Source: an uncultured delta proteobacterium
Lineage (GTDB): Bacteria; Desulfobacterota; WTBG01; CAIYCZ01; CAIRTM01
Assembly: GCA_963804955.1 (NCBI GenBank)
Contig: CAWDSQ010000024.1
Location: 173,423-237,422, forward strand
DNA: 64,000 bases
Direction of reading: 5' to 3'
Below are positions 9,067-32,282 of the stretch, piece by piece. Each line of letters opens with the position of its first letter. The first letter of the stretch is position 1. The notes under the pieces are model-generated. The model worked only from the letters and a program-made list of their open reading frames with translations, was not told where the DNA came from and searched no databases. A program made the position numbers and the translations under genes.

Positions 9067-10171
9067 CTGAGTTTCTGCAGTTTTTTTCTGAATGCCGCCA
9101 TAAGCCGATACCCGTCATGAACCGGCTGTTCTGCAAGCTGCTGCAAAATTTTTTTCTCCATGCGCGATATCTTTTTGGGCATTTCGATATGAAAGCGGTA
9201 CACCATGTCCCCCTGTTTGCCGCTCTTCTCAGACACAGCCCCCGTGCCTTTAAGCCGAACCTCAGCTCCGCTCTGTAAGCCTCTTGCAATCTTTATCTTT
9301 TTTACACCTTCAAGAGCAGGCACCGTCACATATCCTCCCAGCATGGCCTGATAGAATGGAATTGGAACAGAACAGATAATATCAAGGCCGTCGCGCTCAA
9401 AAAACGGGTGCTTTTCCACATGCACAACGACCATAAAATCACCCGCTGCGCCACCATCCCGGCCCCGCAGCCCCATACCGCGCACCTGGAGCCGTGCTCC
9501 GGTTTCTACACCGCCTGGAATTTTTATGTGAACCGGCCGCTCAGACCAGGCAGTGCCTTTTCCTTTGCACCGCGGGCACTGCGCAGTGGCTGTTTTCCCC
9601 GCTCCCTTACAGGCTGTGCATTGATGCGGCAGGCCGCGCCGGTCGTTGACCTGGCCACTGCCCCGGCATTGCGCACAGGCAACCAGCTTTGAGCCGGCCC
9701 GTATTCCTGTGCCACGGCACTGCGGGCAGGACTCCCAAAAAGGGGATATGAATCTCGGCATCGCATCCGAGGGCGGCATCTCTGAAACTCACTTTCAGAT
9801 TCCGCCGAAGGTCATGCCCCTTTATTGCCTCTATTTTTGGGCCCGTCCTGTCGAAAATAAAACCCCTCATAAAAATCACGCAGCATTTCGTCACGGGGCA
9901 TATAAAAATCGTTGCGCGGCGGGGGCGTGGTTTCGCGGCGTTTAAACTCAGCGGCCTGACGGCGCACAACCATATCATATTCGATGCGTTTCTCAGCATT
10001 GCCAATGGTTGCATAGGCCTCATTCACGAGCTTGAATTTCTCTTCGGCAAGTTCATCACCCTGATTTCTGTCAGGGTGATAGTTCATCGCAAGGCTTCGG
10101 TAGGCTTTCTTTATAGAGGCTGCGCTTGCCGTATGCTCAACACCCAGCACCCTGTAGTAATCAGGCTTCAC
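9063..10171 (-). CDS. DnaJ-family co-chaperone with J domain and zinc finger (frameshift near 9815)
   Basis: [14 protein letters not shown], four CxxCxGxG repeats, DnaJ C-terminal domain; GTG start overlaps upstream stop. Confidence 0.88.
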
Positions 10172-11176
10172 GCGCCCCCCTGCTGTGCAGCCATCACTTC
10201 GGGGTAATAGCACATCGTGGCTCTGCACGAACGCTTGTAGGTTGCCGTATACAGCATGCGGGCGGCTGTGCGATATGCCGCCTGCGTTGGGCTTTCATCA
10301 AGCATGTCCAGAAGGGTTTTAAGAAACTCCACATCGCGCAGCTTGCGCTCAAGGGGGTTTCCGCGCCCGACGACTTTCAGGCTTCCGATGCCGAGCTTTT
10401 TAAATTCATACAGGGCGCAGGCGCCGCAGGGATGGTCGTCAACATGCACGCGCTCCCATATGCGCTGCCGCTCTATCATGCAGGCCTGCCGCATGAACGG
10501 CACACTCTGATCGCGGGAAGCTATCTGCACCTCAAAAGGCAGCATGCAGGCATTTTTAAACATGGGGGGCACCTCTTTGCGCGCCAGCCCGTGCTGAAAT
10601 GTGCAGAAGCCGTCAATATTTATGCAGCGGGAATTGAGAACAAAAGCCGTTGTTTCCATGGGCGGCATCTGCGCCGTAATATCCTCTGATTTCCGCAATC
10701 GAGAGATGGCGGGGAAAGGTGATATTGCAGGCGCCCAGCTGTTTAAAAAAAGCTGCGGAGCGCCAGTTAAACACCGTGCCGCCGGTGCTGATATGTATGG
10801 CCGCCGGATAGCTCTGTTCTTTTATAAACTGCAGCAGCCCGAAATCGGTAATGATAAAAGCATCAACCCCTGATGCTGCCGCCTCGTCAAGATACCACCT
10901 GATAAGATCGTATTGCGCCTGCGTATAGTAATGCTCATTGACCGTAAAGTATACAGGAATGCCCAGGCCGTGAGCTCTGCCGACAGCCTCTTTCAAATCT
11001 TCAAAGCGCCGAAAATGCCCTTTGCCGGCAGGCCGCCTGTTTATGGATATAACCGGATATTTCTCATACCAGCTGTCTTCCAGGACTCCGCAGAAGAATT
11101 CACCTGCTCCGGCCTTTGCAAGCCCGTCGACTTCTTCGATGCTGTCAAGCGGCGATAGTATCTTCATTGCTTTCAT
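10168..11176 (-). CDS. U32-family Fe-S protein (frameshift near 10685)
   Basis: [43 protein letters not shown]. Confidence 0.82.
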
Positions 11177-11178
11177 AC

Positions 11179-11977
11179 TCAGACCGGCAGCTCCGGCTGC
11201 ACGACAATACGGTCGACCTGCTGCCGGGTAACGGCATCGGGTATGGATTCATGTATAAAAAAAACGGCATTGCCCCGACGGATAAGCGGCAGGGTCATGA
11301 CGGGATTATACAAATTAAAGCTGTACTTCAGGCATTCTCTGCCGCAGGGGAAAATGCCGGTAGAGCCCATCTTTGCCGGATCATCGCAGTTCGCGCTCAG
11401 GCAGAAACGGGTTGCCGAAACAAAAGCAAACGGTACATACAGCGACTTGTGAAGGCTGGCGTCAGTGCCCTCCAGGTGCAGACCCTGCAGAAGATTATCA
11501 AACTCCACGCGGCTCGATGCCCTGCTGCGTCAAAAAACGCACGGCTGCCGGCACGTCAAGATTGGAGCCCTGAAAGTAGTCCTGCGTTTCGACGGGAAGC
11601 TGATCGAAAATATTCATAATGCGGGGCCCGCGCTTGCTCTTGTTGAGCAGTCTTCCGAGCACGGGATTGAGATCAGGATACTCACTGCGCAGCAGCTGAA
11701 GAACACCCCAGTCATTCACAACCACTTCAGCATCAGGCAGGGTCTGCGCAAGCACGGGCAGCAGATCTTCAAGCAGCGCAAGGCCCCGGTTTGTCACAAA
11801 CGGGGTCATAAAGGTAAATGCGAGGGATCTTTCGCGGGCGCTGCGCAGTGCCGTTTCAAGCTCATGCCGCGGCGGTATCAGCCGCTCGCAAAATTCCGCT
11901 CCGAAATACAGCCGCGTAAAATCATCGCTTGCGTAGTGCAGGTGATCGACACTGTTTATATAAACTGCCTGTTCCAT
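11179..11977 (-). CDS. Divergent U32-like partner protein (frameshift near 11510)
   Basis: YFGAEFCE, VVVNDWG, LGRLL, TRFC, CGREC, RGNAVF; adjacent to U32 gene. Confidence 0.6.
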
Positions 11978-12070
11978 ATACTGTCCAAGGAAAGCGCCCC
12001 GAAGCACCTGCTGCTGCACCATGACCGGCAGCCGCTCTCACCACGCCGGGTCATGAGCACAAGGCAGCGG

Positions 12071-12685
12071 TCAGTCAAACGGCGTTTCATTCATCAGGCG
12101 CACGACCGGGACGCCGTCAAAAAAATCTATAATATTCAGGCCTCCATACGCCTGATCAATACGGGGTATCATTTTCAAATCAAGCCCGAGGGCATGACAC
12201 AGAATAACACGGTTCACACCGCCATGGGCAACCAGCAGTATATTTTTGCCCTGGTGCTGATCAAGGCAGGCTGTCAGGCGCGGTATCACACGGTCGCGCA
12301 TGTCGATAAAACTTTCGCCGCCCTGTATCCTGTAGCCCGCTATATCCGCGGAGCGTTGATCAAACTCCTGAGTAAAACGCGCCGTAATCTCTTCGCGGGT
12401 CAAGCCCTCCCACTGTCCGAGATGTATCTCCCTGAAAGCAGGCTCCGCTGCCGGCTCAAGACCGATAGCTTTGCCGATAATCCAGGCAGACTCTACCGTG
12501 CGCATAAGGTCGCTGGACAGCAGCACATCTATTTTTTCCATGCTCAGCCTTCGGGCAAGACGGGATATCTGGGCCCTGCCTTTATCATTGAGAGCCACAT
12601 CCATATGCCCCACATACCGCCATTCATGGGAGGTGACGAGCTCGCCATGCCGCGCAAGATAGAGCCGGGTCCGGCCGGCGCTCAT
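12071..12685 (-). CDS. Histidine phosphatase family protein (CobC/PhoE-like)
   Basis: YLARHG, SSDLMR, GESF, VAHGGVNR. Confidence 0.9.
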   Translation of the reverse strand: MSAGRTRLYLARHGELVTSHEWRYVGHMDVALNDKGRAQISRLARRLSMEKIDVLLSSDLMRTVESAWIIGKAIGLEPAAEPAFREIHLGQWEGLTREEITARFTQEFDQRSADIAGYRIQGGESFIDMRDRVIPRLTACLDQHQGKNILLVAHGGVNRVILCHALGLDLKMIPRIDQAYGGLNIIDFFDGVPVVRLMNETPFD

Positions 12686-12841
12686 CTGCTCAAGCTCACG
12701 GTGTAAGGAAAAACGGAGTCGATGCGTTTTTCTGCTCAATAGTCAGGGAACTGCTCATGGTGTGATCAGTATGAAAATAATGGGGTTGTTAACGCATACA
12801 AACACAGCGCCGCCCATACCGCGCATCTCTGCAAAGCAGCC

Positions 12842-15005
12842 TCAGAGATGCATCCGGTCACGGATCATACGCACCATTGTTGTATTTTCGGTATGCCCGG
12901 TCATATTTGCAGTAATCCGTGCGCGGATGGGGCGCCCAAGCAGGTAGAAATCTCCTATCATGTCAAGAATCTTATGCCGCACAAATTCATCGGGAAACCG
13001 GAGCTCGGTGTTCACAATCTTCTCATTGTCGATAAGAATAAAGTTATTGAGCTTGCCGCCGCTTGCCAGCCCCCGCTCTTGAAGGGCCTCAATGTCGCGT
13101 AAAAAGCCGAATGTGCGCGCCGGAGCAATCTCCTTCTTGAAGGCTTCCTCGTCGTTCATGATAAAGGTGTATTCCTGCCGTCCGACCGGCTTTGGATACT
13201 GCAGCATATAATGAATTGAAAATCGCTCCGCCGGCTCGACTATCATGTGCTTTTTAGCGCCATCGATTTCACCGACAACGAATTTTTCCGTCAGAATGAT
13301 GTCATCGGCAGGAGCGTCCTGCTCTTCAATGCCCGCATCCTCAATCATCTTGCAGAAATCAACGGCAGAACCGTCCATGATGGGCACTTCATTATTGATC
13401 TTGATCATGAGATTTGTGATGCGATAGGCATGCAGCGTTGCAAGGCAATGCTCTATCGTTCGTGCTGTTGAGTTGGTATTCTGCAGGCATGTTGAATAGT
13501 CGGTTGACACAACATAATCGATAGACGCAGGAATAGTATCGTCGCTTGAAATATTGCCGAATACGATGCCGCTGCCGGGAGGCAGCGGGGTTAAAATAAG
13601 GCCTGTTTTGTCTCCGGAATGCAGGCCCTGACCGCTCACGACCATGGCACTCTTAAGCGTTCTCTGAAATCGTTTACCTGAAGGATTTTCTTTGGCAAAA
13701 ACAATGCCGTACTCCTTTATTAATTTCTTCAGCTCCTTCTCCCTGATGTGTATTGCGGCAGCCGTTTTCGCTACATTGCGATCATTTTTGCGCAAATGAT
13801 GCAGCAGATAATTTTTACGCCAGGCAACTTCAGCCTCTGCCATGCTTGCACATTGCTCATAGGAGCGGGATGAGGCATGCTGAGACTCTTCGCGTATGGC
13901 CGAGGGCAAATCCTGAGCGGAAATGGTTTTTGTCGGTACCGATACAGCCATTTTTTCAGTGAGATTCTTCAGTTCCTTAACATTGCCCGGCCAATCATAG
14001 TTCACCAGAAGTTCAAGAGACTCGTCATCAAACTGCTTTTCCCTGCAGCTGTATTCCTTGCAGAACTGGCCGAGAAAAGCGTTGAGCATAACCGGTATAT
14101 CGCTGCGGCGCTCACGCAGGGGTGGCAGCAGTATCGTGTGCTGAAAACTCTCGGCAAGCGACTTCTTCAAAACTCCGTCACCCGCTGTTTTGATCGTTGC
14201 TCCGACAACCCGCAAACATCCTTCTTCTGTATGCAGCAGCTTGCCCAGCTGATCGGCAAGCCGCTTTTGCATGTCGGGAGGAACCGCATCAAGCGCCTGC
14301 AAAAACAGCACCCCCGTCGCCTCTCCGGTCAGCAGGCCATGCTTGCCGGGCTGGTTGTCGCCGAAAAGTTTTGCCGCAAGTTCAGCAGGCGTCAAAAAAG
14401 CACAATTGATCTTTGTAAAGGTTTTTTTCTTAAATCCGGATCCGCTGTGGATCAACTGCGCCGCATGCTCCTTACCCGTTCCGATTTCACCCAAAAGCAG
14501 AATATGCCCCCTGCCGGATGCAGCGCTTTTGATCTGGTCCATGGCCCTTAAAATTGCATGACTCTCTCCGGACAAAGCCGGCAGTTCTTCGCGGGCATCT
14601 GCGGTTTTCGATCCTGCAGAGCTTTTGCCTGCCGTCTGCTGTTTTTCCTTGATCTTTCTTATGATATCGATAACGGCATCAAACGAAAAAGGTTTTTCGA
14701 GAAAATCGAAGGCTCCGTGCTTCACTGCCTGAACCGCCGTATTCACCGTGCCGTGACCGGTCATCATAACAATATCAATAGCACTGTCAAAGTCCTTAAC
14801 AGCCTTCAAGGTCTGAATGCCGTCCATCCCGGGAAGCCAGATATCAAGAAAAATAATATCCACAGGATTGAGATTTTACGATCTCCAGAGCACGGTTGCC
14901 GTCTGAGGCCGTCAGCAGAATATGGCCCTCGTCCTCAAGGCTGCCTCGAAGCGAATTTACAATGGAAGGTTCGTCGTCAACCAGCAGTATTGCTAAATTT
15001 TTCAT
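12842..15005 (-). CDS. lpxC: NtrX-like response regulator (REC, degenerate AAA+, HTH-like) fused to LpxC; frameshift near 14865
   Basis: ILLVDDE...FLDIWLPG receiver; GEIGTGKE and WPGNVKEL; then QRTL..GQGLHSG, TIEH, EVPIMDGSA, ARTFGF, EFVRHKILD, GH. Confidence 0.9.
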
Positions 15006-17268
15006 TATACGTTTCCCTTCTGAAGCTTATGGTCGGTGATACCGGCAGCTGAATGATGAAACAGGCGCCTCTCGGCTGATTGTCGCGCACGCGAATAAAT
15101 CCATTGTGGTCTGATACAATCGTGTTGACGATAGCCAGCCCCAGACCGGTTCCGGCCTGTTTTGTGGAAAAATAAGGATCAAAAATTTTGGTTTTAAGCG
15201 CAGGCGGGATGCCGCAGCCGGTGTCCGCAACCTCGATGATTACCACGTCAAGGGCCTGATTGTATGCTGTCTTGACCGTTACCGTTCCGCCATTTTCCAT
15301 GGAGTGAACCGCATTGTCAAGCAGATTGATAAGCACGCGTTTTATCTGGTCCCGGTCAAAATTAAACCGGATCGTGTCCAGCTCACGCACGGCGCTGAAA
15401 ACAATGGTTTTATGCGCTTCACGGTACAACTTGAGGGTCTCATCAACGACTTCGTTGAGCTCATTGGGCAGGGGATTGGTTGCCGGCATACGGGCAAAAC
15501 TCGAAAACTCATTGACCATGGTTTTGAGTTCATCGACCTGATTGATGATAACCGTTGTGCATTCATCAAACACCCCCACATCGGATGTGATCTGATGCTG
15601 AAACTTCTTCTTCAGCCGTTGAGCTGAAAGCTTGATCGGCGTGAGCGGGTTCTTTACCTCATGGGCTATCCTGCGCGCAACCTCTTTCCATGCAAATGCC
15701 CGCTGCGCCTGCTGCAGCTGGGTGAGGTCTTCGGCAACCAGAACAAGCCCCATGCTTGTGCCCTCGGCGTCAAAAAACATATTGGAGCGCACGTACAAAA
15801 ACACCATCCTGTCGGCAAGCGACAATGCTATCTGCTGCTCGACGGATCGAAGCCGGCTGACAAGAACCTCGCTGATAAAATCCTTTAGCGGCGCGAGCTC
15901 TTCATGCGCAAACACATCACCGTATGGGCGGTTGACGACCTGCGCAAAGGTGGTATTGAACATGCGTTCCGCTGAATTATTGAATGCAGTAATGACACCG
16001 TCCTGATCGGTTGAAACAACAACGGAGGCGACATTATCAAGCAAAATCTCCATATACAGCCGCCGGTGCTCAAGCTCCCGGATGGTTTCCCGCAGGTTGC
16101 TGGTCGTTGATTCAACCTGCTGCGTGCTTGCTTTGAGATCATGGGTCATTTTATTGAATGAATGTATCAGGCTGCCGATCTCGTCATCGGACGACGGCTC
16201 TATCACAACATCCAGATTCCCCTGAGCTATCTGTTCTGTCGCAGTCGCCAGTGAGCTGATGGGTACGGATATCACCTTTGAAAGGTGAAATCCGAACCAC
16301 GTTGCAGAAAAAATAATCAGCAGCGTCACGGCAGACAGCAAAATAATATAAATGCCCTTAATGGGGCCCTTGGATATTTTAAGCTGTTTATATTCCTGAT
16401 ACGCCCGGTTGATCTCGTCCATTTTGATGACAAGACTCTTGGGATTATAAAAATTTACAATCACGGCGCCAACTATCTCCTGCTTGCCACCCGCAGGCCG
16501 CACAGGAACAACGCCGCGAACGATATCTCCGTTGTCGGCAGGCTGAATGCGGGTAACCTCCTTGCCTTCGAGCGCCAGGCGCACAAGGGCCGCATCTGAT
16601 CCTATAAAATCCTTCTCGGGCACATCGGCACGGGCAACTTTGACCAGCAGCTCTCCACTGGCTGAAAATATCTCGACCACGCCAAGATCGTACTCGGACT
16701 GTTTTTCAGCTACCAGCCTCCATAAGGGCTCTGATGCACGATCCCCGAGCATTTTTTTTGCTGCGATACTGCCTGCAATCTGGCGGGCGTAGTGGAGCGC
16801 TTTTGAGGACGAGTTGCGGTAATAGGCATCAACAACATTGAGTGACTCTTCAAGAGAATTCTCAACTTTAAAGCTGAACCAGTTTTCAATCGTATTGGTT
16901 ATAAAACTGATGGATACCCAGAACAGCAGCATGGTCGGCACCAGGGACAGCCCCACAAAAGCTATGACCAGCTTTGTGCGCAGCTTCGACCCCAAAATGC
17001 CCCTTCTGCGCTCGAAAAAAAGCTTCACAACATTGCGCACAACAAGAAAAAGCAGAAGCAGCAGCAAAATAGCATTCAGATTGATGAGACTGAAAACAAG
17101 AATATTCTGCGGCAGAAGAGCCTCGCCGCTGCGGCCGGTCACATACATCAACAGCGATGTGAGGGCAATGACGACCGGTATGGCAATAAAAATAATAGTC
17201 TGTTCCCGCTTGCGTCGCTTCTGCTCCTCCCGCATCTGACGCTGGAGCCTGTCATTGTCGATGGCCAT
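14977..17268 (-). CDS. ntrY: NtrY-like sensor histidine kinase (TM, HAMP, PAS, HisKA, HATPase)
   Basis: GSKLRTKLV, AWKEVARRIAHEVKNPLTPIKLSAQR, NLLDNA, GTGLGL. Confidence 0.88.
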   Translation of the reverse strand: MAIDNDRLQRQMREEQKRRKREQTIIFIAIPVVIALTSLLMYVTGRSGEALLPQNILVFSLINLNAILLLLLLFLVVRNVVKLFFERRRGILGSKLRTKLVIAFVGLSLVPTMLLFWVSISFITNTIENWFSFKVENSLEESLNVVDAYYRNSSSKALHYARQIAGSIAAKKMLGDRASEPLWRLVAEKQSEYDLGVVEIFSASGELLVKVARADVPEKDFIGSDAALVRLALEGKEVTRIQPADNGDIVRGVVPVRPAGGKQEIVGAVIVNFYNPKSLVIKMDEINRAYQEYKQLKISKGPIKGIYIILLSAVTLLIIFSATWFGFHLSKVISVPISSLATATEQIAQGNLDVVIEPSSDDEIGSLIHSFNKMTHDLKASTQQVESTTSNLRETIRELEHRRLYMEILLDNVASVVVSTDQDGVITAFNNSAERMFNTTFAQVVNRPYGDVFAHEELAPLKDFISEVLVSRLRSVEQQIALSLADRMVFLYVRSNMFFDAEGTSMGLVLVAEDLTQLQQAQRAFAWKEVARRIAHEVKNPLTPIKLSAQRLKKKFQHQITSDVGVFDECTTVIINQVDELKTMVNEFSSFARMPATNPLPNELNEVVDETLKLYREAHKTIVFSAVRELDTIRFNFDRDQIKRVLINLLDNAVHSMENGGTVTVKTAYNQALDVVIIEVADTGCGIPPALKTKIFDPYFSTKQAGTGLGLAIVNTIVSDHNGFIRVRDNQPRGACFIIQLPVSPTISFRRETYNEKFSNTAG

Positions 17269-17589
17269 GGTAGGTCTATCCTTCGAGAGTGCTGAGTTTT
17301 TATAACCATAACACATATTCGGGTTGAGTTGCATGTGTTAAAATACTGCATCCCGGGCTGATACAATAAACAACAGCAGAAGGTAACCGAAGGCAAAAAA
17401 ACATATTTTTCTATAAGATTTTTTAGCACCTTCTGCAGTATAATGATATGAATAACCTTGACAATGCAGTTGAATTATGTTTTTTTATACGTTCGTATTT
17501 TGTGGAAGAACATAAAACTCAAATTATTGTAACAGCTTAATAAAACGCACTACATCCAAAGCACTATTTAAGAAAACAGGGAGACGACC

Positions 17590-17724
17590 TTGAAACAGAC
17601 ATTCCAGCCAAGCATCTTAAAACGCAAAAGAACTCATGGGTTTCTTGAGCGCATGAGCACAAAGTCAGGACAGAACGTCATCAAAAGAAGGCGGCGAAAA
17701 GGCAGAAAAGTGCTGAGTGCATAA
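17590..17724 (+). CDS. rpmH: 50S ribosomal protein L34 (absent from ORF track)
   Basis: TTG start; [44 protein letters not shown]. Confidence 0.95.
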
Positions 17725-17736
17725 CGCAAAAGATAT

Positions 17737-30610: not shown

Positions 30611-31964
30611 CTATGCACGTTCAAGGCCATATTCTTTAATTTTACGCCACAGCGTATTATAGCCGATACTGAGCCTTTTAGCCGCCTCCCGCTGATTCCA
30701 GCCGCAGTGAACAAGCATTTCCTCTATGTGGTGGCGTTCAAGATCACGCAGAGTCATGTGCGAAAAATTATACGACTGCGCTTTCCTGCCATTATAGTTT
30801 TCAAGCAGTATATCATCGGATGTCAGCTCATCAGTCTCCACCAGAATCATGGCCCGCTCAATAGTATTTTCAAGCTCTCGAACATTGCCTGGCCAGTCGT
30901 ACAACTCCAGTTTTTGTATCGCGTCTTTGGAAAACCCGATTAATTTCCTGTCTGTACGTTTGCAGTATCGCTCTACAAAAAAACGGGCAAGCGGCAGGAT
31001 ATCTTCACGACGCTCCGCAATAGGTGGAATATACAGAGGAATCACATTGAGCCTGAAATAAAGATCCTGACGAAAACGCCCATCCTCAACCAGCTGCTTG
31101 ATCGGGACATTGCTTGAAGCAAGCACGCGGACGTCGATGACGATATCCTTTGTATCCCCGACGCGCCGTATTTCATTCTCCTGCAGAACGCGCAGCAGCT
31201 TCACCTGAAACGCCGGGCTGGTTTCCCCTATTTCATCAAGAAATATTGTGCCTCCATTTGCCTCTTCGAAAAGTCCTTTTTTCGTAATATTGGCGCCGGT
31301 AAATGCTCCCTTGACATAGCCGAACAGCTCACTTTCAAGCAGTGTTTCAGGAAGAGCCCCGCAATTGATTGCCACAAAAGGGCCGTCGCTTCGAAGGCTG
31401 TAATTGTAGATGGCATGGGCGATAACCTCTTTGCCGGTGCCGCTTTCGCCTTCAATGAGCACCGTTGAGGACGACTTGGCAACGCGCCTTACCATAGTCA
31501 AGAATTTTCTGCATCGCCGGGCTTGTTGCTACAATATTGTCGAATTTGAACAAATCATTAACCTGGCTTCTCAAATTCTTGACTTCGGCGACAAGGCGCT
31601 GCCGTTCAATCGCCTTGTGCACCACAAGATTGAGCTCAGTCAGGTCTATAGGCTTCGTTATATAATCAAAGGCCCCCTGCTTCATTGCCTGAACAGCAGA
31701 GTCCACCGAACTGTTGCCGGTTATTATAATCACCTCGGTGTGCGGAGCAACCTCTTTGACTTTTTTCAGTATATCGATACCGGTAACAGAGTCAAGCATG
31801 AGGTCGGTTATAACAACATCGAAGATATCCTCCTGCAGTATCTGCAGAGCGCGCATGCCATCGCTTTCTTCCCGCACAGAAGCACTCTGCCTGAGAAAAA
31901 ACTTGGACAGCATGCTGAGCGTTGACTCATCGTCATCAATCAATAAAATATGTTGTTTTTTCAT
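30611..31964 (-). CDS. Sigma-54 response regulator, NtrC/AtoC-like (frameshift near 31495)
   Basis: Receiver, [30 protein letters not shown], Fis-type HTH. Confidence 0.92.
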
Positions 31965-32282
31965 TGTGTTAGGCGAGTAATAAAAAGTTCCCCTCTGATA
32001 CCTGCATGGGTTTTCAACATGTGTCAAACATACTACTAGCACAACCGCCGTGCGCCGTGCAAGATTGAATTAAAAAAAGAAGGGCTTGCAAAGGTTTGAG
32101 CTAAAAGCTTAAAATTAATTGCTTGACAAAAAGAAAAAAATGAACTAATTATCACTTCTTTAATTATCATAGATAACATCCTCCCCAAAACCTCTACGGC
32201 TCGGGGTAGAATTATCAAAGCGACAGTTCCGCTAACAACAGTAACTCAACCGGCTCAACACGTAACCTGCAAGGAGTGTATT

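Follow-up and report, generated by a model that had tools for sequence, protein, structure and literature searches.

An NtrX-like response regulator fused in frame to LpxC beside an NtrY-type kinase gene in an uncultured delta proteobacterium: a candidate phosphorylation switch on lipid A synthesis

Introduction

LpxC (UDP-3-O-acyl-GlcNAc deacetylase) commits the cell to the synthesis of lipid A of the outer membrane. In alphaproteobacteria, the two-component system NtrYX is functionally tied to the envelope and affects lpxC through its transcript (PMC12444477, PMC7240162), and in Rhodobacter sphaeroides without NtrYX the lpxC mRNA is increased 8.8-fold (PMC7240162). The link of NtrYX to lpxC in alphaproteobacteria, the group of R. 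sphaeroides and Caulobacter crescentus, is transcriptional and indirect, whereas in the genome studied here regulator and enzyme appear in the same protein. The locus lies in a stretch of 64,000 nucleotides (the window) from contig CAWDSQ010000024.1 of an uncultured delta proteobacterium, and it raises the question of whether a response regulator is genuinely joined to LpxC and, if so, what the receiver does to the enzyme attached to it.

Results and discussion

Gene organization of the locus

Three open reading frames (ORFs) were listed on the minus strand (-), of 785 aa (14977..17334), 53 aa (14844..15005) and 673 aa (12842..14863). The first corresponds to an ntrY-like sensor histidine kinase gene (14977..17268, assigned by Pfam and by its translation, with an alternative ATG upstream at 17334); the other two are pieces of one regulator gene that starts with the ATG at 15005, overlaps the 3' end of ntrY by 29 nt, and has its receiver (REC; 14660..15005, Response_reg matches) split in two frames by one extra base, probably an assembly error, located at 14867..14869 by DNA alignment with relatives. 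From there a single stop-free frame (12845-14863) runs through a degenerate σ54-type AAA+ core (14117..14572), an AAA+ lid domain (13868..14116; AAA_lid_14, E 1.6e-23, residues 250-332), an NtrX-like C-terminal HTH of the Fis/HTH_8 type (13703..13861), a linker of 12 residues (13667..13702) and a complete LpxC domain (12845..13666), ending at the stop codon 12842-12844. The DNA at the junction, KEYGIVFAKENPSGKRFQRTLK, is read through without a stop codon, and the linker holds no conserved internal start. The fusion of the regulator to LpxC is real and conserved; the preliminary description, which had paired an NtrY kinase with an NtrX-like regulator in frame with a complete LpxC, and had placed the frameshift inside the receiver and away from the junction, agrees with this layout. 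The order of ntrY followed by regulator-LpxC is kept in the same-genus genomes, and rpmH-rnpA is divergent from ntrY with no ORF in between.

The kinase carries the Pfam domains NtrY_N (26 bits, cut-off 23.2), HAMP, PAS, HisKA and HATPase_c, and its translation displays the H-box His together with the N, G1, F and G2 boxes. Its alignments to relatives start near residue 12-23 of the 785-aa ORF, with 88-94% identity to the same-genus orthologues. No NCBIfam model passed its threshold on this protein, the best being AtoS (259 bits, cut-off 646). Among 80 related loci, a full-length NtrY-like gene lies directly upstream in just 26, so the kinase partner is not universal; the copies of Acidobacteriota and Nitrospinota adjoin unrelated genes, for example those of a methyltransferase, GreA and a HAD hydrolase.

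The LpxC domain and its status as the only copy

Residues 400-667 of the 673-aa ORF matched the Pfam LpxC profile almost entirely (282.8 bits, cut-off 27; E 3.7e-84; profile 1-266 of 268), and the NCBIfam equivalog TIGR00325 scored 263.7 bits, above its cut-off of 187.25. All motifs quoted in the preliminary description (QRTL, GLHSG, TIEH, EVPIMDGSA, ARTFG, HKILD and GH) were found in the translation, and those of the active site align with TVEH, HKILD and GH of Pseudomonas aeruginosa LpxC (6moo, E 6.9e-51). All 22 long-form sequences of one alignment share the residues E471-H472 (TIEH), T584, H630, K631 and D634 (HKILD), D638 and H657 (GH), and the equivalent catalytic and zinc-ligand columns are invariant in 64 of 64; in the E. 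coli enzyme the zinc ligands are H79, H238 and D242, and the catalytic pair is E78 and H265. Furthermore, when the structural model of P0002, a homologue with 89% identity to the window protein, was superposed with Aquifex LpxC (1p42), the TM-score was 0.93, target-normalised, and the rmsd 1.9 Å. Judged by its sequence, the fused LpxC domain is probably catalytically intact.

As to whether this is the only lpxC, which had been proposed as a check, the fused gene is the single LpxC match in its own genome, which is 87% complete, and is thus probably the only lpxC there. An LpxC match was present in 40 of 41 related genomes, and in 29 of those it was single and lay in a frame of at least 620 aa, some of these genomes being rated 98-100% complete; in five further genomes, three of them with records titled chromosome, the fused gene was likewise the only match (5/5). 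LpxB, LpxK and LpxD were found in the own genome, and lipid A is therefore made by this host; with a single LpxC match in the genome, this indirectly supports deacetylase activity of the fused domain.

A decayed σ54 activator between receiver and enzyme

The best match of the regulator in the PDB, in sequence and in fold, is Brucella abortus NtrX (5M7N/5M7O/5M7P), which is collinear with its first 387 residues, LpxC being added 12 residues past the end point of NtrX. The NtrX equivalog model (NF051870) is also the best regulator model, although it remains below its cut-off of 600 on both the window ORF (207.6 bits) and P0002 (248.4 bits). The receiver is recognized in both frames (Response_reg profile 1-45 on the 53-aa ORF, and 43-110 on residues 1-68 of the 673-aa ORF), and the full-length long-form homologues of the 22- and 64-sequence alignments conserve its acidic pair, phospho-acceptor Asp, Thr and Lys.

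The AAA+ core was matched by Sigma54_activat on residues 98-206 of the 673-aa ORF (61.9 bits, profile 2-117 of 168); the unfused regulator of one sister family (f3), described below, gave 240.5 bits over profile 3-167. Motifs were identified in two multiple alignments (A1, A2) and by comparison with aligned NtrX and NtrC1 chains. Walker A (GxxGxGKE) is retained. The GAFTGA loop is missing in the window and in 22/22 aligned sequences, with a 7-residue gap relative to the NtrC-family chain 3dzd; the Walker B position reads L-F-L-Q-A and is variable among homologues; the arginine-finger segment FRxDLYYR is replaced and shortened; and sensor II reads NVKEL. Brucella NtrX is also without GAFTGA, but it keeps two motifs that the fused regulator has lost, Walker B and the arginine finger. 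By its motifs, the module is a decayed σ54 activator and no longer a working one. The HTH-like segment has no Pfam match in the window copy, and only some homologues exceed the HTH_8 threshold (L035, 24.4 bits; P0119), but phmmer aligns residues 335-387 to the C-terminal 50 residues of Brucella NtrX (5m7n), as far as the end of that protein, and Trp348 of this region is invariant in 22/22 sequences.

A short receiver-LpxC form

A minimal form of 419-457 aa, consisting of receiver and LpxC with no DNA-binding domain and no AAA+ module, was found in 55 of the 80 related loci, in Binatia, Acidobacteriota and others. The acidic pair, phospho-acceptor Asp and Lys are invariant in 50/50 short-form sequences, and the Thr position is Ser in at least 90% of the 50. 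As the DNA-binding domain is absent, the receiver of the short form can act on LpxC alone. The AlphaFold model of the short form has a pTM of 0.86 with a disordered linker of 26 residues, a value which would imply a confidently placed contact between receiver and LpxC. Conversely, the model of the long form (P0002) has a pTM of 0.48 and low-confidence linkers at 126-139 and 438-443, the latter matching the HTH-LpxC linker with pLDDT below 50, so that for the form in the window the model predicts no fixed arrangement of receiver and LpxC. In a quick tree with weak deep support, long and short forms are interleaved, a pattern suggesting repeated loss of the DNA-binding part with retention of receiver and LpxC.

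Unfused sister systems dedicated to lpxC

In two sister families (f3 and f5) the same target enzyme is encoded separately, in an operon of lpxC, DUF4390, ntrY and activator genes whose NtrY is orthologous to that of the window (47-54% identical). In 5/5 sister-family genomes with a separate lpxC, the orthologous ntrY follows it at a distance of 750-1000 nt, and lpxC is preceded by a TGGCAY-N5-TTGCT element, at 58-68 nt, in four of the five. The one locus fully read (G029) displays the order lpxC, DUF4390, ntrY and then a canonical σ54 activator, with a σ54 -24/-12 element before lpxC. The sister activator is a separate protein with GAFTGA, Walker B DE and FREDLYFR, whereas the regulator in the window is fused and these motifs are gone; the sister lpxC falls in a different subfamily, with 36-40% identity to the fused LpxC domain. 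Since the sister lpxC sits by the orthologous ntrY, a σ54 activator and a σ54 promoter, the kinase system is dedicated to lpxC even when unfused. Unlike the sister-family lpxC promoters, the window locus showed no σ54 element.

The DUF4390 gene of f3 scored 84.5 bits, and a subset of NtrYX systems with a DUF4390 (PlrP-like) third component has been described (PMC13001219). In the window, no DUF4390 gene was found next to ntrY, no ORF lying between it and rpmH-rnpA, and PF14334 (DUF4390) was unmatched in the own genome in a search that was silent in every control genome too and is thus a weak test. A further lpxC-dedicated σ54 two-component system is DVU2931/DVU2934 of Desulfovibrio vulgaris, likened here to the window by its published description; lpxC is the single target of the regulator DVU2934, and the lpxC promoter the only one bound (PMC3333781).

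Proposed mechanism and alternative readings

Our preferred reading, to which we give a probability of about 0.6, is a two-component system whose regulator is fused to the only LpxC of the cell, the state of the receiver setting the output of LpxC. NtrY, as a membrane sensor kinase, would transfer phosphate to the Asp of the fused receiver, and the receiver state would in turn set the catalytic activity, the oligomeric state or the stability of the attached LpxC. The decayed AAA+ module is probably only a scaffold or a nucleotide-binding spacer; DNA binding is probably preserved in the retained HTH, and the long form may double as an NtrX-like transcription factor. A direct phospho-control of LpxC, put forward in the preliminary description, is well motivated but unproven, and it gains weight because the short form keeps the phospho-acceptor in 50/50 sequences and has a pTM of 0.86, and because the sister kinase serves lpxC. 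The fusion is thus probably a direct phosphorylation switch on the step that commits the cell to lipid A.

Given that the HTH is conserved, the receiver could in long forms act through transcription only. The protein would then be bifunctional and uncoupled, its receiver controlling DNA binding only and its LpxC being constitutive and fused for a fixed proportion, as in an autoregulatory loop of LpxC dosage. The collinearity of the HTH with NtrX and its conservation in long forms, the flexible linker to LpxC with the low pTM of the long form, and the effect of alphaproteobacterial NtrYX on the lpxC transcript (PMC12444477, PMC7240162) are in agreement with it. We nevertheless consider it unlikely: short forms, which lack both HTH and AAA+ module, still keep acidic pair, Asp and Lys throughout and are modelled with high pTM, 11 fused loci showed no conserved σ54 or NtrX-type site ahead of ntrY, and the interleaved tree, for all its weak deep support, suggests that the DNA-binding part was lost repeatedly.

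The state of the receiver could also be read out as turnover, the regulator part being a phosphorylation-dependent degron or adaptor platform that sets the half-life of LpxC instead of gating it allosterically. Such an arrangement would be analogous to FtsH/LapB of E. coli (LapB is also known as YciM; LapB-LpxC complex, PDB 8V24), which likewise controls this committed step after translation, and E. coli LpxC is under proteolytic control (PMC6339880, PMC12444477). E. coli LpxC is degraded via its C-terminal tail, whereas the fused LpxC ends straight after the last helix, with no tail beyond the catalytic domain, which is in line with this reading; moreover, an AAA+ module with Walker A alone has no obvious catalytic role. 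This module is, however, wholly absent from the short form, and we regard control by turnover as improbable; a test for a LapB-type partner gave an unspecific result.

A third reading would detach LpxC from the kinase altogether. If the frameshift were genuine, the locus would encode a 53-aa fragment and a protein restarted at the GTG at 14863, without the first 47 receiver residues. The extra base is present in the assembly, and receiver breaks were also seen in three relatives (an extra A in G003, an extra G in G036, and a CAG-to-TAG change in G010). On the other side, the coding strand reads CAATCC in the window and CATCC in four same-genus genomes (G001-G004), and comparison of ~37 kb of the window with G001 revealed at least 13 frame changes, with ~12 of 30 genes split, housekeeping genes such as those of DnaJ and a U32 peptidase included; at ~0.36 shifts per kb, ~0.8 shifts are expected in the 2.2-kb fusion gene. 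Neighbouring genes are likewise split in G003, and G040 carries two shifts inside the AAA+ part, so that breaks are not confined to the receiver. In addition, both bridging contigs recovered from public runs, the best of which holds 0.10 of the words, leave out one letter at 14868 (2/2); where a contig that differs at 5 positions in 233 nt stops at this site, its 9 loose letters fit the window only with one letter dropped. Given the frame changes of the window and the relatives without the base, the frameshift is most likely an assembly indel error, and a genuine one is very improbable.

Finally, although the assembly is error-prone, an artefactual junction, whether from the loss of a stop codon or from two genes joined chimerically in assembly, is refuted by the identical in-frame junction with a constant, gap-free linker of 12-13 residues in 22/22 aligned long-form homologues, none with the stop and restart that had been looked for, by single chains of 661-749 aa that combine receiver, Sigma54 and LpxC in 116 of the 120 best-scoring protein clusters (drawn from NCBI, JGI, ENA and Logan), and by the same fusion in the short-read assemblies G001, G002 and G004 of the genus.

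Relation to other enzymatic response regulators and LpxC fusions

Response regulators with enzymatic output include the methylesterase CheB, the diguanylate cyclases PleD and WspR, and the HD-GYP protein RpfG. In these proteins the receiver is fused to an enzyme, as in the short receiver-LpxC form, and catalysis can respond directly to phosphorylation. Unlike the outputs of these regulators, which are signalling enzymes, LpxC is a zinc deacetylase that belongs to an essential pathway of biosynthesis, and in the long form, as a further difference, receiver and enzyme are separated by a complete transcription-factor body. We found no paper describing this fusion.

On the basis of the sequence comparisons, control may have moved in evolution from transcription to protein, a scenario to which we give about even odds: a σ54 activator of a separate lpxC would have been followed by its fusion to LpxC with decay of the ATPase, and then by forms of receiver and LpxC in several phyla.

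Another natural fusion of this enzyme is LpxC-FabZ, in which the partner is a pathway enzyme at the C-terminus, as opposed to the N-terminal signalling module found here; the bifunctional LpxC-FabZ model (NF009667) scored 216 bits on the LpxC part of the window protein, below its cut-off of 465.

The regulator-LpxC fusion and its partner kinase

In the window, a 785-aa ORF (14977..17334, minus strand) carries the Pfam domains NtrY_N, HAMP, PAS, HisKA and HATPase_c, and these five domains identify its product as an NtrY-type kinase, as the preliminary description had proposed. Directly downstream, a receiver profile is divided between a 53-aa ORF (14844..15005, minus strand), holding its first 45 positions, and a 673-aa ORF (12842..14863, minus strand), holding positions 43-110, followed by a partial Sigma54_activat domain (profile 2-117 of 168), an AAA+ lid and a complete LpxC domain (E 3.7e-84, profile 1-266 of 268). 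The approximately 65 residues between lid and LpxC have no Pfam assignment; they align with the C-terminal helix-turn-helix (HTH) of Brucella NtrX as far as the final residue of NtrX, and 12 residues separate the end of this alignment from the start of LpxC. The DNA of the HTH-LpxC junction is free of stop codons. Hence the Pfam assignments, the junction DNA and the NtrX alignment agree on what had been claimed from the sequence, namely an NtrX-like regulator joined in unbroken frame to a complete LpxC. Directly 3' of the fused gene, on the same strand, lies a histidine phosphatase gene (His_Phos_1, E 4.8e-57; 12071-12739, minus strand), an order kept in the same-genus genomes.

The fusion is real and conserved. 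Among the best 120 clusters of a search against a collection of 5.8 billion proteins, 116 are single chains of 661-749 aa that unite receiver, Sigma54 and LpxC (47-100% identity), and the other four, of 517-629 aa, had no receiver match. Three genomes of the same genus (G001, G002 and G004) hold unbroken frames of 726-728 aa. A stop and restart at the junction had been raised as a concern; the DNA reads through, and the HTH-LpxC linker is constant in length and gap-free in an alignment of 22 homologues. No conserved in-frame start was found ahead of the LpxC domain or its QRTL motif among these 22 sequences, and an AAGGAG upstream of the junction, considered in connection with an internal start for free LpxC, encodes K-E within the conserved KEYGI motif. 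Shorter proteins were also searched for the closest free-standing LpxC, but the result was set aside: the 120 matches listed come mostly from 1-3 kb contigs and are cut pieces of fused genes, several holding part of a receiver. Source databases name the fused proteins LpxC or NtrX, and each of these plain names hides half of the protein.

Decay of the regulator module

The acidic pair, phospho-acceptor Asp, Thr and Lys of the receiver are kept in all aligned orthologues of the long form (receiver, AAA+, HTH and LpxC in one chain). The AAA+ module retains Walker A. Variable residues stand in place of the Asp-Glu of Walker B, no GAFTGA loop is present, a different and shorter sequence occupies the arginine-finger segment, and Lys takes the place of the sensor II Arg. 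Brucella NtrX is the best match of the regulator in both sequence and fold; it also has no GAFTGA, but it has kept Walker B and the finger segment, both gone from the fused protein. Furthermore, with 208-248 bits the match to the NtrX equivalog model stays below its cut-off of 600. Given the losses of GAFTGA, Walker B, finger and sensor II, together with this score, the regulator is NtrX-like rather than NtrX and no working σ54 activator; judged by its residues, it is a decayed activator with a dead ATPase. A second NtrC-type response regulator, unfused, is found at 30614-32069 (minus strand) and is itself split over two frames, and the genome as a whole has about 20 σ54-activator paralogues, 38-45% identical to the sister-family regulator described below.

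A single LpxC, apparently intact

Whether this is the genome's only lpxC had been left as a check, and the family model matches once in the assembly, which is 87% complete. The same model finds LpxC in 40 of 41 genomes of the class: in frame in a chain of at least 620 aa in 29, cut or broken in two (G024, at a contig end, and G040, with two frame changes), and as a free-standing gene with a frame of 291-336 aa in nine, comprising all eight genomes of family f3 and one of family f5. Fused and free-standing LpxC co-occur in none of the 41, and the two genomes with two matches each hold pieces at contig ends. The fused gene is likewise the single match in five of five further genomes that carry it, of which three come from source records titled chromosome. 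LpxB, LpxK and LpxD were found in the window's genome; with a single LpxC match, the organism should make lipid A and must then rely on the fused enzyme. For LapB, the model PF18073 matched once, in a 93-aa frame, and was discarded as unspecific, as it matches 10 of 14 control genomes including Gram-positives.

The His of GLHSG, the Glu-His of TIEH, the Thr of ARTFG, the His, Lys and Asp of HKILD, the next Asp and the His of GH are invariant both in the 22 aligned sequences and in a set of 64 long-form sequences, and they align with the same motifs of Pseudomonas aeruginosa LpxC; in LpxC these positions are assigned as zinc ligands and catalytic residues. In addition, the LpxC domain passes the NCBIfam equivalog cut-off (263.7 against 187.25 bits), and the model of a 720-aa orthologue 89% identical to the window protein superposes on Aquifex LpxC with a TM-score of 0.93. 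By these measures the LpxC part appears catalytically intact.

A tally of fused LpxC across the phylum (201 genomes) was not adopted. Among the best 150 matches most frames were of 280-395 aa, hence free-standing, two were long (G017 and G006) and three had 453-473 aa; 46 weaker matches lie outside these 150 and fused domains score lower, so no proportion is given. Elsewhere in the phylum, LpxC matches within larger open frames at G143:C1:3956407-3957198 (1378 aa), G193:C59:10000-10809 (1086 aa) and G164:C108:637-1446 (514 aa) may represent further LpxC fusions of another kind.

Wider family, short forms and phylogeny

With one genome taken per species, a wider scan gave 80 loci, whose architecture was assigned by tblastn and frame analysis and checked with Pfam on 12. 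The long architecture was found in 25 of the 80, in Thermodesulfobacteriota (including Desulfomonilaceae and Syntrophaceae), Nitrospinota and other bacteria, and a short receiver-LpxC protein of 419-457 aa in the remaining 55, in Binatia, Acidobacteriota (Thermoanaerobaculia and Holophagae), Syntrophobacteraceae, Syntrophorhabdus and others. Across 50 short forms, the acidic pair, phospho-acceptor Asp and Lys of the receiver are invariant, the Thr position is Ser in at least 90%, and the linker varies and has low complexity. Immediately 5' of the fusion, 26 of the 80 loci have a full-length NtrY-like gene; the copies of Acidobacteriota and Nitrospinota have unrelated neighbour genes and are therefore orphans.

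Compared with fused domains from other families and phyla, the LpxC domain of the window shows 47-74% identity; against the free-standing LpxC of sister families in its own class, identity falls to 36-40%. A quick maximum-likelihood search on 96 domains separated eight free-standing sequences from 88 fused ones with full support; long and short forms are interleaved in this tree, whose deep branches are weak. Short contigs in bins assigned to Promethearchaeota, Margulisiibacteriota and Enterobacteriaceae (L031, L062 and L097) also carry fused genes; since these genes fall among Thermodesulfobacteriota and Binatia sequences in the tree, mis-binning is the likely explanation of the bin labels.

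Wiring of lpxC in the sister families

In five of five sister-family genomes with a separate gene, which are kin and whose loci are not independent counts, a free-standing lpxC lies 750-1000 nt 5' of the orthologous ntrY on the same strand, and this ntrY is 47-54% identical to that of the window. The operon of one of them (G029; L024 1288-6864) consists of lpxC, a gene for a DUF4390 protein, ntrY and a 456-aa regulator with canonical GAFTGA, Walker B, arginine finger and sensor II (Sigma54_activat, 240 bits). A σ54 -24/-12 element, TGGCAY-N5-TTGCT, precedes lpxC by 58-68 nt in four of five sister loci (among L024 and L112-L116), all four of family f3, against a background of 11 comparable matches in 128 kb. 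These features point to σ54-dependent, kinase-controlled transcription of lpxC in the sister families, which may preserve the ancestral wiring. Such wiring matches published cases: lpxC is the single target of the Desulfovibrio vulgaris regulator DVU2934, and the lpxC of Syntrophobacter fumaroxidans adjoins an operon orthologous to that of DVU2934 (PMC3333781), while lpxC transcription is repressed by NtrYX in Rhodobacter sphaeroides and Caulobacter crescentus (PMC7240162, PMC12444477). DUF4390 proteins have been proposed as third components of some NtrYX systems (PMC13001219); the DUF4390 model had no match in the window's genome and was also silent in every control genome.

Upstream of ntrY, none of the 11 fused loci has a σ54 element, aside from one weak match 412 nt upstream in L111, and no NtrX-type palindrome could be named in the fused loci searched. 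In the window this region (17335-17736) has a divergent rpmH-rnpA-yidD-yidC cluster on its far side. Conserved blocks 5' of ntrY are the rpmH gene, a 45-nt block, shared by five same-genus genomes, that has the look of an rpmH promoter region, and, 40-70 nt ahead of the ntrY start, a block that resembles an extended -10.

A possible mode of LpxC control

LpxC, a major target for antibiotics, determines how much flux enters lipopolysaccharide. Most of what is understood of its regulation concerns enterobacteria, in which FtsH/LapB degrades it, rather than the way other Gram-negative phyla balance lipopolysaccharide against phospholipid. The reading that best accounts for the data is a kinase system dedicated to lpxC, in which control would have moved, in the lineage of the window, from transcription to the LpxC protein itself: NtrY would pass a phosphoryl group to the receiver, and the receiver would act on LpxC. 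In the AlphaFold model of the short form (mean pLDDT 87.4, pTM 0.86) the linker is disordered and LpxC makes up 63% of the chain; we infer that so high a pTM requires a confidently placed receiver-LpxC contact. The model of the long form (pLDDT 82.1, pTM 0.48) has floppy linkers and no hint of such contact. Docking of its receiver (1-125) against its LpxC domain (444-720), run without controls, scored 0.00, a value that speaks neither for nor against the contact.

A purely transcriptional receiver, with LpxC as a passenger, could accommodate the retained HTH and the long-form model, and has the short receiver-LpxC proteins to account for; we consider it unlikely. Control of the fused LpxC through its turnover would follow the enterobacterial precedent, and appears distinctly improbable.

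If direct control by the receiver is true, it would be a new control mode for this step, and response regulators would gain LpxC as an output domain of a new kind. The short protein (about 430 aa) would be a natural minimal system for biochemistry and structure, and the three states, namely a separate lpxC under a σ54 activator, a long fusion with a dead ATPase and a short fusion, would form an unusually clear series for studying a transcriptional circuit collapsing into a single allosteric protein. In the full-text papers searched, no account of a receiver-LpxC or NtrX-LpxC fusion turned up, and the words "fused" and "fusion" are absent from a 2025 review of lipid A regulation.

The receiver frameshift

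The frameshift, which the preliminary description had also placed inside the receiver, comes down to a single additional base at 14867-14869 that four same-genus genomes lack. One letter is omitted at this site in both of two bridging contigs from public runs, and a third contig (five differences in 233 nt) ends there, its nine loose letters fitting the window only with one letter dropped; all these contigs come from relatives, the best run holding at most 0.10 of the sampled words and none of the runs listed being RNA. Over about 37 kb (4576-41886), comparison with 39 kb of syntenic G001 reveals at least 13 frame changes, a rate of about 0.36 per kb that splits about 12 of 30 genes, including DnaJ, a U32 peptidase and another NtrC-type regulator, and that predicts about 0.8 shifts in the 2.2-kb fused gene. 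Given the relatives without the base, the contigs that drop the letter and the frame changes throughout neighbouring genes, the break is an assembly indel error at odds of roughly nine to one, and a real frameshift yielding a receiver-less variant is very improbable.

Receiver breaks occur in three related genomes, by an extra A in G003 (L014), an extra G in G036 (L016) and a CAG-to-TAG change in G010 (L015). A biological origin, suggested by the confinement of breaks to the receiver in these and the window's genome, was rejected, as G040 (L110) has two shifts within the AAA+ part and breaks are about as frequent in neighbouring genes; many other genes of G003 are split too. The G010 change, which involves no indel, might be a real receiver-less allele. 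The assembly carries many single-base indel errors, against which every broken gene of this genome has to be judged. Within 10168-11176 and 11179-12022 (minus strand), for instance, the U32 peptidase is divided between two frames, with Pfam profile positions 4-76 in one ORF and 76-220 in the next, and an adjoining gene of 271-304 aa is also split; both genes are intact in G001, G002 and G004.
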